From a virus (taxonomy: Duplodnaviria > Heunggongvirae > Uroviricota > Caudoviricetes), in IMG/VR virus record IMGVR_UViG_2880372215_000004: a stretch of 64,000 nt of DNA, one strand, 5' to 3'. The position numbers and the translations under genes are program-made. Under the pieces are notes generated by a model. It searched no databases. It was not told the origin of the DNA and saw only the letters and a program-made list of their open reading frames with translations. Positions 25,342 through 29,236 of this stretch are shown here, one piece after another; the stretch's first letter is position 1, and each line of letters begins with the position of its first letter.

Positions 25342-25673
25342 GTTTTGCTGATGCGCCGTATCGTCGCTGTATTCCCTCATTAACAGAGACCGCAGCCCGA
25401 CAGGGAGACTCCTCTGCGCGAGTGTGCGGGGAGAATCAAAAACGATACGCACCGGGGTTTACCGCGTTAACGGAGCGCGGCGTTGTCCCCTCATGGTCGC
25501 TGGTTCGGTGCGATGGTGGAAGAAACCGGACGATGTGTTACCTCGCAAGACCTGTTATGTCATGTGTCTGATTTGTGATTTAAGTCGGATAATTGTCGTT
25601 GCCATTAAGCAGAGGATTGATGGCCGACAGGGTGGCATTGTTAGAATAAGACTTATTCTTATCTGTGCCGGGA

Positions 25674-26006
25674 ATGAAAATGAAAAGAAATCTTCCGTTA
25701 ATTATTTTGTTGTCTTCTCTGGTTATGGGCTGTACGCAACATAAAACAGATATGCCCCGACAGTTGGTTAAGGCATTACCACAATATCCGGCCTATGCAG
25801 CGGCAAATTATATAAAGGGACGGGTTGATGTGAAGTTTGATATTGGTGCTGATGGTACTGTCACCCGAATTGAGTTTATCCGTTCAGAGCCGCACCATCT
25901 GTTTGATGAGCAGGTTGTAAAGGCGATGGCAAAATGGCGATTTGAGAAGGACAGGCCGCGTAAAGGCGTGAAGAAAACGTTTATCTTTAGTCCTTCTGCA
26001 CCCTGA
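25674..26006 (+). CDS. lipoprotein with TonB C-terminal-like domain, about 110 aa (start 25674 or 25680)
   Basis: ORF 25665..26006; lipobox LVMGC; C-terminal YPAYAAANYIKGRVDVKFDIGADGTV...AMAKWRF. Confidence 0.6.
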   Translation: MKMKRNLPLIILLSSLVMGCTQHKTDMPRQLVKALPQYPAYAAANYIKGRVDVKFDIGADGTVTRIEFIRSEPHHLFDEQVVKAMAKWRFEKDRPRKGVKKTFIFSPSAP

Positions 26007-26137: not shown

Positions 26138-26338
26138 TCATTTCTCGTTATTTGTCATGCTGGCCGGACGCAGATGCGTTGCATCTGTTGCCAGCCTTCT
26201 CCTGCAGGCTTCAATAACCCACGCTGAAAAGTTACCGGAACCTTTATGTTCAAGGGCGATATTGATCTGTTCAATCATGTGATTGGGGAAACGGATATTG
26301 CGGGTTGTGGTTCTGCGGGTCCGGTTTTTCGATGACAT
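26138..26338 (-). CDS. small basic putative DNA-binding protein, 66 aa from MSSKNRT
   Basis: ORF 26138..26398; AAGGAA 6 nt before internal ATG; divergent from HNH gene. Confidence 0.5.
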   Translation of the reverse strand: MSSKNRTRRTTTRNIRFPNHMIEQINIALEHKGSGNFSAWVIEACRRRLATDATHLRPASMTNNEK

Positions 26339-26379
26339 ATTTATTTCCTTTACTGATTGCCATATGACGGGGATTTTAC

Positions 26380-26745
26380 ATGGCTGAGCTTCGTACACTC
26401 CAGAGCAGAATCAAAACACTGAATACCCGACGGGTGAATATTCTGAAGGGTGAACAGCGTCGTGTCAGTGGCAGTGCACGTGTTTCCCTCAAGCGTCATA
26501 TCTGGCTCAGGGATGCCGGGCAGTGCTGTCTCTGTGGTCGTGTGGTTGACCTCTGTGACAGTGAACTCGATCACCGAATTGCACTTCAGTTCGGTGGTGG
26601 TAATGAGGAGACGAATCTCTGGACGCTCTGTACCGAATGCCATCGACAAAAGTCTGCTCGTGAAGCGGCGGGTGGTATGCCGGACCCGACGCTGCCGGAG
26701 GTGTCCGGAGGTAGTGGCAGAGCGGACGACATCATCGGACTGTAA
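26380..26745 (+). CDS. HNH endonuclease (terminase-associated type), 121 aa
   Basis: CCLCGR...LDHRIALQFGGGNEETNLWTLCTECHRQK. Confidence 0.8.
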   Translation: MAELRTLQSRIKTLNTRRVNILKGEQRRVSGSARVSLKRHIWLRDAGQCCLCGRVVDLCDSELDHRIALQFGGGNEETNLWTLCTECHRQKSAREAAGGMPDPTLPEVSGGSGRADDIIGL

Positions 26746-26835
26746 CCCGAGCGGGGGGGTATCATCCGGCGTAAAAAACGATCGCTCCGGACACCGCGCC
26801 CCCTCTCACGCAGAGAAAAAATTCCCGTTTCAGGG

Positions 26836-26959
26836 CAGTTAACATGTTAACTGGCTGTCCGGGCATTTTTGCGGTTTTTATCTTTATTATTCAGTTTGTT
26901 GTGCGAAAAAAATGTTAACTGGCTTTTTCATCAAATGTTAACCAGGCAGCAGTTAACAT
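26836..26959. repeat. cluster of ATGTTAACTG motifs incl. perfect 18-bp palindrome CAGTTAACATGTTAACTG (26836-26853); copies at 26912, 26935 and inverted at 26950
   Basis: Read in sequence between HNH and terminase small-subunit genes. Confidence 0.6.
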
Positions 26960-27033
26960 TTGCGGCATGAGACGCCGGGAAAAATGGGCTGAACCATACC
27001 CGGCTGAGTGCGTTCTGGACCCGGGAGGAGGCT

Positions 27034-27597
27034 GTGCTGACAACGCAAAAACGAAAATTTGCGCTGGCGCTCATGTCCGGGAAAAACAAAACAGCGTCAG
27101 CCATTGCCGCTGGTTATTCGGCGAAGACCGCCAGGGTTAAAGGCTCGCAGCTGGCAAAAGATCCGGAGGTGCTTGCGTTTATAGCCCGTAAACAATGCGA
27201 GACGGTGGAGGTGGATGAGGTTCCTGTTTACCGGCAGAAAAAATCAGAGCAGGAGGATAAACCCCGTCGCCGTGAGGCGGCTGCAATACCACAGCCGGAC
27301 GAAAACAATCCGGAGATGCCACCGTCCGCGGTGATGTCTCCTGGTATTGAATATATGGAGGATGGTCTTCCCGATCCGGTGAAAGCGATGGGGCGTCTTC
27401 TGGTGGAGAACATTAATACCGACCCCAGGCTGGCGCTGGATGCGGCTTATAAGCTGGCGCAGTTCACGCACCATAAAAAAGGGGATGCCGGTAAAAAATC
27501 GGCAAAAGGTGACGCGGCGAAAAAAGCGGCTAACCGTTTTGCGGTGCCACCACCACCCCGCCTGGTGGTGAATAATGATAATGAGGGCAACGGATGA
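27034..27597 (+). CDS. terminase small subunit, 187 aa, GTG start
   Basis: ORF track; GGAGGAGG before GTG; ATGA coupling to large-subunit start. Confidence 0.7.
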   Translation: MLTTQKRKFALALMSGKNKTASAIAAGYSAKTARVKGSQLAKDPEVLAFIARKQCETVEVDEVPVYRQKKSEQEDKPRRREAAAIPQPDENNPEMPPSAVMSPGIEYMEDGLPDPVKAMGRLLVENINTDPRLALDAAYKLAQFTHHKKGDAGKKSAKGDAAKKAANRFAVPPPPRLVVNNDNEGNG

Positions 27598-29236
27598 TAC
27601 CTGTGTGGAGCACGGCCTGCCCGGACTGGGCAGAGCGCCTGAAAAAGGGGCTGTCGATTATTCCGGCTCCGATTTATCCGGACAGGCTGCACATGCACTG
27701 GCGATTTTTAAACAACTGCGATTGTGGATGCACCGGGTAGCCCGACATTCGGGGAGTCCTGCGCACCGTGGGTGTTTGACCTGGTGGCGGCCCTGTTTGG
27801 CTCCTACGATGCGCAGACCGGTGTTCGCCATATCAAGGAAGTTTTATCCTTATCCCCAAGAAAAACTCGAAGTCCACGCTGGCTGCGGGATCATGATGAC
27901 GGCGCTGTTACTGAACTGGCGGCAGGCGGCGGGCTACACCATTCTGGCCCCGACCGTGGAGGTGGCGGCTAACGCCTTCAACCCTGCCAGGGATATGGTA
28001 CGACGGGACGATGATCTGGATGACCTCTGTCAGGTGCAGACACATATCCGGACCATCACCCATCGGGTGACGGACACCACCCTGAAGGTGGTGGCTGCCG
28101 ATCCGAATACGGTGTCCGGTATCAAGTCCGTGGGGACGCTGATTGATGAACTGTGGTGTTTGGCAAGCAGTACAAGCGGAGACATGTACGTGAAGCCATC
28201 GGCGGCTTGCCTCCCGCCGGAAGGGTTTGTGGTGTATACGACCACCCAGTCGAATGAACCGCCCGCCGGGGTGTTCAGACAGAAACTGCAGTATGCCCGG
28301 GATGTCGCGACGGCAAAATTCATGATCCGCACTTTCTGCCGGTGATTTTTGAGCATCCTCCTGAAATGGTGGAAAGCGGGGCTCACCTGCTGATGGAAAA
28401 CCTCGCCATGGTTAACCCGAATCTCGGTTATTCGGTGGATGAGGCTTTCTGTACCGGGAGTACCGTAAAGCCCGGGAGGCTGGTGAGGAAGCATTTCGTG
28501 GCTTCATGTCAAAACATGCCAATGTGGAAATTGGTCTTGCCCTGCGTTCTGACCGCTGGGCGGGCGCGGATTTCTGGGAGCAGCAGGGCAGGCGCGTCAG
28601 CCTGGACGATATCCTGCAGCGCGCTGATGTGGTGACGGTGGGGATTGACGGCGGGGGCCTGGATGATCTGCTGGGAATGTACGTGATTGGCCGTGACAGG
28701 GAAACCCGCGAATGGCTGGGCTGGGGCCATGCCTGGGCGCATGAAACCGCGGTGGTCGACGGAAGAGCGAGGCGTCCCGGTTTCAGGATTTGTGCCTGTG
28801 GAGATATGACGATTGTCCGTCGGTCGGGGATGACACGGCGGAAGTGGCGGAATATGTGCGTCGCATTCATGAGGCTGAGTTACTGGACATATCGGTATTG
28901 ACCCGTCAGGGTGGGGCAGATTCTGGATTCACTGGCGGAAGCCGGGATCCCCGACGGAATGTGGTGGGGATAAGCCAGGGCTGGAAACTGGGCGGGGCCA
29001 TTAAAACCACCGAGCGCAAACTGGCTGAAGGGGTGCTGATGCATGGTGACCAGCCCCTGATGGCCTGGTGTGTCGGCAATGCCCGGGTGGAGCCTAAAGG
29101 TAACGCCATTCTTATCACCAAACAGGCCAGTGGACGGGGAAAAATTGACCCGCTGATGGCGCTGTTCAATGCGGTCTCCCTGATGTCCCTTAACCCGGAA
29201 CCGAAAAAGAAAGAATATGCGGTTTTTTTCATATAA
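27594..29236 (+). pseudogene. terminase large subunit, reading frame broken into at least six pieces
   Basis: Terminase-like peptides alternate between frames in ORFs 27724.., 27575.., 28342.., 28506.., 28790.. Confidence 0.7.

Follow-up and report, generated by a model that had tools for sequence, protein, structure and literature searches.

The 64,000-nucleotide stretch of DNA analyzed here (hereafter the window; IMG/VR virus record IMGVR_UViG_2880372215_000004) represents a lambdoid prophage of the BP-4795/Stx1a type (Shiga-toxin-type, E. coli), in which a cluster of short repeats lies, as an earlier sequence-only reading had placed it, between the gene of an HNH endonuclease (26380–26745) and the terminase genes, beginning with the small-subunit gene terS (27034–27597). 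The five copies of the 8-mer ATGTTAAC in this cluster are probably sequence-specific recognition sites of the phage's small terminase (TerS), functionally equivalent to cosB of phage lambda. They most likely mark self-DNA for TerS, since related phages and satellites change all of the repeats together with the DNA-binding domain of TerS. The sequence-only reading had named the cluster as candidate TerS-binding sites or as a late operator; the former is supported by comparison, namely by the position of the repeats, their covariation with TerS, and a natural recombinant in E. coli STEC1585.

Positions within the cluster are counted from the putative left end of the packaged genome (+1 at 26805, see below). 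Repeat a (CAGTTAACAT, 26836–26845, with the motif on the minus strand) and repeat b (ATGTTAACTG, 26844–26853, plus strand), both evident in the sequence and recovered by a repeat finder, overlap to give a perfect 18-bp palindrome, CAGTTAACATGTTAACTG, at 26836–26853, which confirms the palindrome reported earlier and forms the proximal site proposed for TerS (+32 to +49). A T-rich spacer of 58 bp (26854–26911, plus strand) separates this site from three distal copies: repeat c (ATGTTAACTG, 26912–26921, plus strand, +108 to +117), repeat d (ATGTTAACca, 26935–26944, plus strand, +131 to +140), and repeat e (an inverted copy, CAGTTAACAT, 26950–26959, minus strand, +146 to +155); the repeat finder joins d and e into an 11-bp inverted repeat. 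The earlier count of three direct and two inverted copies holds for two of each as exact copies, but the third direct copy, repeat d, matches the 10-mer at only 8 of 10 positions.

The cluster is not a product of chance composition. The exact 10-mer ATGTTAACTG occurs four times in 64 kb, twice per strand and always within 26836–26959, as against a mean of 0.10 and a maximum of 1 in shuffled sequences, none of which (0/100) contained at least four. Similarly, the 8-mer ATGTTAAC occurs six times where 1.76 are expected, and five of the six occurrences are inside the cluster. Among 53 distinct close relatives (class I, as described below), none of the 38 core columns varies, compared with 25 of the 191 remaining columns in the interval from +1 to terS (one-sided Fisher test, p = 0.008). 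Positions 9 and 10 of the 10-mer do vary among these relatives, e.g., at 26920 and 26944, and the conserved unit is the 8-mer rather than the 10-mer.

The DNA end was located through Lys8385Vzw (MT225100), which was induced and sequenced, and for which PhageTerm gives a 10-nt 3′ cohesive end, CGCCCCCCCT (PMC7946995); the cut is thus mapped in a 96–98% identical relative and not in the window prophage. The Lys8385Vzw record ends in ...GGACACCGCCCCCCCT and starts with CTCACGCAGAGAAAAAATTCCCG, CTCACGCAGAGAAAAAATTCCCGTTTCAGGGCAGTTAACATGTTAACTGG, and the window reads GGACAC-CGCGCCCCCT-CTCACGCAGAG at the same site. The homologous cohesive-end sequence of the window, CGCGCCCCCT, equivalent to cosN, occupies 26795–26804 on the plus strand, and the top-strand nick would fall between 26804 and 26805, making 26805 position +1 of the left end. 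Since the ends of Lys8385Vzw equate to 26795–26804 and 26805, the repeats begin 32 bp inside the left genome end, upstream of terS, and on this scale they span +32 to +155 on the first-packaged side. The mapped ends of this relative (26795–26805) adjoin the repeats, in agreement with the packaging role suggested by the sequence-only reading.

The upstream half of the cos block (G-run ... GATCGC ... GGACACC and the cohesive end; 26753–26804, plus strand) is nearly invariant across genera despite a TerS identity of 33–49%. The left-end segment that follows, CTCACGCAGAGAAAAAATTCCCGTTTCAGGG (26805–26835, plus strand, +1 to +31, with an A-tract at +12 to +17), is independent of class, being kept in every TerS class, satellites and short-form relatives included; by analogy of position, it may correspond to the TerS site of HK97 with its A-tract. 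Three further observations concern this region. A perfect 11-nt inverted repeat (GGTGTCCGGAG/CTCCGGACACC) is present at 26700–26710 and 26785–26795, 74 nt apart, with one arm in the 3′ end of the HNH gene and the other in the GGACACC element to the left of the cohesive end. The contig of an isolate genome (L072, IMGVR_UViG_2681813226_000009) begins at the counterpart of 26804, one base from the putative cut, which may be a coincidence or an assembly break at the ends of linear phage DNA. The start of the Burkholderia phage vB_CB2a record bears no resemblance to the window cos block and thus lends no independent support to the cut position.

A search of genome contigs with a single TerS sequence gave no relative; a query built from an alignment succeeded and returned 19 TerS relatives in other genera at 33–49% protein identity, including Kluyvera, Atlantibacter, Enterobacter, Citrobacter, Erwinia, Pantoea, and Buttiauxella. 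The group, whose members are referred to here as short forms, also takes in Klebsiella loci and Salmonella phage FSL SP-016. These relatives keep a near-identical block, GGGGGGG...GATCGC...GGACACCGCGCCCCCT/CTCACGCACAGAAAAAATTCCCC, directly after which terS starts (ATGTTAACAG, at +40, within TGTAAAC-ATG-TTAACAG, in the 19 relatives). Since terS of the short forms starts at +40, copy b of the window (26844) is homologous to their start codon, and the window palindrome is homologous to the near-palindrome TGTAAACATGTTAACAG that bears it. The BP-4795 lineage has about 190 extra bp and three more copies ahead of its present start, GTGCTGACAACG. In these short forms (L085–L103, L174/L175, and L310, which is FSL SP-016), where the terS start codon sits inside the near-palindrome TGTAAAC-ATG-TTAACA, Leu is encoded by TTA and Thr by ACA at nearly every one of the 19 genome loci, although the proteins have diverged to 33–49% identity; this suggests that the first terS codons of the short forms are under constraint at the DNA level.

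The long forms have a common skeleton that consists of the block, the first repeat, a T-rich spacer, further repeats, about 75 bp, and terS. The word ATGTTAACTG is present in five copies in the window, in L165 (TerS 80% identical), and in L301, and the core ATGTTAAC is present in six copies in L299; L169 (TerS 67%) carries ATGTTAACCACC in five to six copies, with the palindrome GGTGGTTAACATGTTAACCACC. In L167 (TerS 76%, class II), the words are TATAAACATGTTTATA, ATGTTTATACCC, ATGTTTACAGG, and GGTAAACATT, and all copies have changed from GTTAAC to GTTTAY. The class II counterparts of the window elements are the palindrome TATAAACATGTTTATA and, for repeats c, d, and e, ATGTTTATAC, ATGTTTACAG, and GGTAAACATT, respectively, so that the class I word ATGTTAAC is set against the class II word ATGTTTAT (ATGTTTAY in five copies). 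The class II interval is found in 11 of 5,426 complete genomes. Among viral contigs, the T-variant of the cos block was found at only 12 loci; those that were classified are class I, and IMG/VR yielded no new motif class.

The association between motif and TerS type was counted over 75 distinct cos-to-terS intervals, in which the motif class follows the class of the TerS helix-turn-helix, as the motif comparison in relatives proposed with the sequence-only reading now bears out. Class I TerS, KN[KR]TA..AGYS.KTARVKGSQL, occurs only with TGTTAAC, in five to six copies, and class II TerS, KNRTA..EAGYSEKSARCKG (KNRTA..E..KSARCKG), only with TGTTTAY, in five copies (L167, L307, L308, and the partial interval L303). 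The satellite-type TerS, NPTEAA..KTARVKGWQL, is found with AGTTACA. Among the short forms, KSARSKG accompanies TGTAAAC/ATG/TTAACA, with GTAAAC as the left half-site, and KTARSQGSRL accompanies TGTTAAC/GTG/TTAACA, with GTTAAC as the left half-site. As we read them, long and short forms alike pair Ser33 with TTTA and Thr33 with TTAA; satellites have Thr33 with GTTACA, indicating that other residues matter too. Within residues 1–60, class I and class II TerS differ only by K19R, A26E, A31E, T33S, V36C, I50M, and A51T, and five of these seven substitutions lie in or beside predicted helices 2 and 3 (residues 19–25 and 33–41).

The neighboring proteins do not follow the same pattern. The TerL proteins of the two classes share 96% identity, and HNH is 79% identical between L167 and the window. 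In E. coli STEC1585 (L307, NZ_CP129252), HNH is identical to that of the window at 121 of 121 residues, YlcI has the same accession as in E. coli strain E2863, and the cos block is identical to that of the window through +22, after which class II repeats and a class II TerS (WP_115785671.1) follow. This interval (L307, 843–1130) is a natural recombinant, its left breakpoint falling between +22 and +27, and the C-terminal end of its TerS is again identical to that of the window. The recombinant, together with the TerL identity, indicates that it is the TerS N-terminus that the repeats move with, rather than HNH, YlcI, or TerL.

Two kinds of satellite-like element in E. coli, one with an AlpA gene and the other with a primase, combine the same nicking block with a TerS homologue, and near the satellite TerS of either kind there is no adjacent HNH or TerL gene. 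They carry AAAGTTACAC-type repeats (AAGTTACAC in two to six copies), about six in L172 when degenerate copies are counted and two direct copies in L170; AGTTACA itself is present in two copies in the L170 interval and four in that of L172. L304, a third kind of satellite, has one AAAGTTACAC-type copy. The C-terminal part of the satellite TerS is much closer to the window TerS than is the N-terminal domain, a pattern that would fit a protein in which the DNA-reading part varies and the partner-binding part is conserved. Judged from their sequences, L170/L171 (~1400–1990), L172/L173 (~1210–1975), and L304/L305 look like satellites of the phage-inducible chromosomal island (PICI) type, for which a BP-4795-type phage may be the helper; some elements among them carry a capsid-like gene. 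In L172, at 1371–1387 and 130 nt upstream of terS, one helper-type word, AAAAATGTTAACACCCC, stands at the position of repeat c amid the AAAGTTACAC copies; it is perhaps a relic, or else the helper TerS may bind there. No full-length copy of the L172 interval was found in the E. coli genomes searched.

The proposed reader of the repeats is the helix-turn-helix domain formed by TerS residues 1–55 (27034–27198, plus strand). Pfam assigns residues 2–57 to Terminase_2 (PF03592) with 35.8 bits against a cut-off of 26.1, and a profile built from 21 homologues of TerS finds the SF6/SPP1-like G1P DNA-binding domain in the PDB (4zc3, 3zqp/3zqq, and 2cmp; E = 2.5e-4 to 8.5e-4). The AlphaFold2 model of TerS exceeds a pLDDT of 90 for residues 1–50 and places helices at 4–14, 19–25, 33–41, and 44–55, with helices 2 and 3 taken to be the helix-turn-helix; its top Foldseek match is 4zc3 (target-normalised TM 0.84, rmsd 1.6 Å, 30% identity), with 2cmp at 0.81. 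In the modeled monomer, further helices are predicted with moderate confidence at 115–125, 131–145, and 154–165, and residues 60–105 are predicted to be disordered. Comparison of HK97 gp1 with the window TerS by BLASTP gave E = 1.2, with no Pfam match in common; likewise, no gpNu1 chain is among the PDB profile matches at E <= 1, and Pfam gives only Terminase_2. The sequence-only reading had placed the cluster where HK97-like phages have their packaging recognition site. Its location just inside the cos end and the HNH-cos-terS layout agree with this, but TerS is Terminase_2/G1P-like and not HK97-like, so that only the general layout (HNH gene, 3′ cos end, TerL families) can be called HK97-like.

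The spacer between the proximal and distal sites contains a possible site for integration host factor (IHF) or for bending, ATTCAGTTTGTTG (26889–26901). In an alignment of seven lineages with otherwise diverging spacers, ATTCAnnnTGTTR is invariant, and this element is one mismatch from the IHF consensus WATCARNNNNTTR; an exact match to the consensus is absent from the spacer (26854–26911).

These features suggest how the site might work. Late in infection, TerS would oligomerize with its N-terminal helix-turn-helix domains exposed, if its assembly is like that of SF6/SPP1 G1P, and these domains would engage both the palindrome at +32 to +49 and the distal copies c, d, and e (+108 to +155). The 58-bp T-rich spacer may bend, either intrinsically or through IHF, or be wrapped, such that proximal and distal sites reach one TerS assembly. 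Bound TerS would then hold TerL, helped by the HNH protein, on the adjoining class-independent block, including the A-tract at +12 to +17. Within this block TerL and HNH would nick, leaving the 10-nt 3′ end CGCGCCCCCT, and packaging would run rightward into terS. Under such a scheme, specificity would lie in the repeats and cleavage in the block.

Several points weigh against the proposal that TerS reads the repeats. The evidence for it is comparative, and the DNA binding of the SF6/SPP1 G1P helix-turn-helix in vitro has been reported as weak or non-specific (review PMC9611059). The core-to-core distance is 8 bp between a and b but 15 bp between d and e, a difference that a rigid dimeric reader would not accommodate. 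Only about 200 bp separate the repeats from the TerS N-terminus, and part of their co-inheritance is therefore simple linkage; what goes beyond linkage is only the identical change in all five copies and the recombinant breakpoint just left of the first repeat. Linkage cannot, however, explain the same base change in all five copies or the invariance of the class I cores. The cos end comes from one relative, by PhageTerm on short reads only, and the frame-shifted TerL of the window (see below) may mean that the site is a relic in a defective prophage or that the assembly is poor.

The homology between copy b and the short-form start codon raises the question of whether the repeats are simply what remains of a duplication, i.e., whether the ~190 bp arose by repeated copying of the 5′ end of terS (ATG TTA ACT GGC = MLTG) and the copies have no function. 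Besides the adjoining terS start and cos block in the 19 short-form relatives, the 13-nt string ATGTTAACTGGCT common to copies b and c and the present start, GTGCTGACAACG, which resembles a degenerate sixth copy, fit such an origin. Neutral copies would drift separately, yet the cores are invariant in 53 relatives in which 25 other columns vary, the same change is found in all five class II copies, and satellites carry a different motif at the same positions. We consider functionless copies very unlikely; a duplication origin is compatible with a present function of the sites and may explain where the copies came from. Mini-ORFs that start at ATGTTAAC copies were rejected as a conserved gene: the window ORF at 26844 encodes MLTGCPGIFAVFIFIIQFVVRKKC*, the equivalent ORF has 24 codons in L169 but is shortened to 14 in L167 and to 5 in L299, and the window has only a degraded form of the Shine-Dalgarno sequence (GGAGGG) of the short forms. 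A comparably small probability attaches to nucleic-acid structure, in which the inverted pairs a–b and d–e would be hairpins of the mRNA leader that control terS translation, or DNA cruciforms. Both pairs survive lineage changes through both arms, as in the class II TATAAACATGTTTATA and AAATGTTTAC...GTAAACATTT, and local DNA hairpins fold better than shuffles (z = -3.2 and -5.0); yet hairpins need no motif common to a–b, d–e, and the unpaired c, and one motif is shared among them in every lineage. The satellite L170 has just two direct copies, and the stems are A/T-rich and weak (-6.5 and -8.5 kcal/mol). An RNA element was also rejected, as shuffled sequences fold about as well as the leader (+1 to terS; z = -1.1) and Rfam gives no match at E <= 1.

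Palindromic, repeated sites are typical of operators, and a small DUF3950 protein is encoded 440 bp upstream, so that a phage or host regulator (YlcI/DUF3950 or a late regulator) might bind the palindromes to control the head genes. In lambdoid phages, transcription reaches the head genes by read-through from the late promoter, which lies upstream of the lysis genes; we count this against an operator at this place. Moreover, STEC1585 carries class II repeats alongside the YlcI accession of E2863 and an HNH identical to that of the window, and no DUF3950 gene is called upstream of HNH in L167 (within the fetched flank) or near the TerS of the satellites. Two promoter-like matches were found where 1.3 are expected, and the sole one in the cluster consists of the repeats themselves, on the minus strand; the only terminator candidate is weak and lies inside terS, also on the minus strand, and promoter and terminator signals were set aside. 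The late operator of the sequence-only reading is thus not upheld, as the promoter signal does not exceed chance and the repeats do not follow YlcI/DUF3950, and we regard an operator as highly improbable. An even smaller chance is given to the repeats being binding sites for the HNH protein or TerL rather than TerS. HNH is required for cos cleavage in HK97-type systems and differs by 21% between L167 and the window, but an identical HNH stands alongside class II repeats in STEC1585, TerL is nearly the same in the two classes, and satellites have their own repeats with no HNH or TerL gene nearby. Recognition by TerS hence remains the preferred explanation of the repeats.

The proposed recognition site can be compared with four known packaging systems. 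In lambda, the gpNu1 sites R3-I1-R2-R1 of cosB adjoin cosN (PMC6092414). As in the window, they lie between the nicking site and the small-terminase gene as several copies of a short element in both orientations over ~120 bp, the proximal site is set off from the distal ones by a spacer, which in lambda is bendable and of the IHF type and in the window may be so, and the specificity part (cosB) is distinct from the nicking part (cosN), which is common to related phages and PICIs, as is proposed for the repeats and the nicking block of the window. Unlike in lambda, the window TerS is a Terminase_2 protein with an SF6 G1P-like fold and no homologue of gpNu1, the motif is unrelated, and the IHF-like site is one mismatch off consensus. 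The lambda ends are 12-nt 5′ extensions, whereas the window type has 10-nt 3′ ends and an HNH gene. Since TerS is not Nu1-like, the array may be regarded as cosB-like in function and not as a member of the lambda family. In HK97, the TerS site at +15 to +29 was defined in a cryo-EM complex (PMC11331095). The gene order (HNH, cos, terS, terL), the 10-nt 3′ overhang, the TerL_ATPase/TerL_nuclease families, a TerS site (in the window, the proposed one) downstream of the cut on the first-packaged side, and a conserved A-tract close to the cut are the same; however, HK97 has a single 15-bp site read by gp1 with terS at +50, compared with five repeats to +155 and terS at +230 in the window.

The N-terminal DNA-binding domain of SPP1/SF6 G1P is homologous to that of the window TerS, and G1P contacts repeated boxes in pac and bends DNA. 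In contrast to the window type, these phages are headful packagers without cohesive ends, and their contacts flank the cut on both sides instead of one. In vitro, it has proved difficult to demonstrate that the G1P helix-turn-helix binds DNA sequence-specifically (PMC9611059). In the staphylococcal pathogenicity island (SaPI)/PICI systems, a satellite TerS recognizes its own site while using helper proteins (PMC6092414). The E. coli elements resemble them in having the phage nicking block, a TerS with its own N-terminal domain, and their own repeats; the window differs in being a phage and not a satellite, and the helper relationship proposed here is drawn from sequence. No paper describing these repeats, or a cosB in this group of phages, came to light in a literature search; its coverage was incomplete and an earlier description is possible. 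The cos end of one relative is already published, and the added interest lies in the natural specificity variants and the satellite link.

The surrounding genes are those of a common E. coli prophage type. The region is 96–98% identical to BP-4795 and to many Stx1a-, Stx2a-, and Stx2c-converting phages and is present in 1,282 of 5,426 complete E. coli genomes, at a median of two and a maximum of eight places per genome; 26300–27700 is 99.9% identical to a prophage of strain E2863. Upstream of the cluster, the plus strand carries lysis genes followed by a gene for a TonB C-terminal domain protein of 113 aa (25665–26006, plus strand; PF03544, E = 5.8e-15), located between the lysis cassette and the YlcI gene, whose product carries the annotation TonB family protein in both E2863 and Lys8385Vzw; it looks like a phage-carried accessory gene. 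The small DNA-binding protein YlcI/DUF3950 is encoded divergently on the minus strand (26138–26398), ~440 bp upstream of the cluster. The HNH gene lies on the plus strand (Pfam PF01844, E = 7.5e-7; annotated as HNH in BP-4795 and E2863), and its product is presumed to be a cleavage co-factor of the terminase. A non-coding gap of 288 bp (26746–27033) contains the cluster and is followed on the plus strand by terS (PF03592, Terminase_2) and the large terminase gene terL (27594–29236), the reading frame of which is broken. Compared with the intact 553-aa TerL of BP-4795 and E2863, terL has 19 single-base deletions and no insertions over 27683–28960; outside terL, one other single-base deletion and two small insertions distinguish the window from E2863. 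The deletions may mean that the gene has decayed or that the assembly contains consensus errors in this multi-copy prophage region. The intact TerL homologue matches Pfam TerL_ATPase and TerL_nuclease, and downstream of TerL is a 645-aa major capsid protein, interpreted as a fusion of protease and capsid.

How small terminases read DNA has been described as unresolved, notably for the SF6/SPP1-type domain (PMC9611059), and the two classes offer matched natural variants for testing, since what separates them is 7 substitutions within TerS residues 1–60 and one or two bases per repeat. We tentatively propose that the repeat array may act together with the ~55 N-terminal residues of TerS as a small specificity cassette for packaging, exchangeable and seated on cleavage machinery that is shared (nicking block, TerL, and HNH). 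Lineages and PICI-like satellites would re-tune this cassette such that co-resident prophages and satellites package themselves and not each other. If true, a few helix-turn-helix substitutions (e.g., T33S and V36C) paired with a one- or two-base change per repeat would constitute a natural recognition code for G1P-type TerS. A further prediction from the data is that a set of PICI-like elements in E. coli that carry terS have BP-4795-type phages as their helpers. Since the module is present in about a quarter of complete E. coli genomes and in many Stx1a, Stx2a, and Stx2c phages, such a recognition site would govern which DNA is encapsidated by toxin phages and their satellites.

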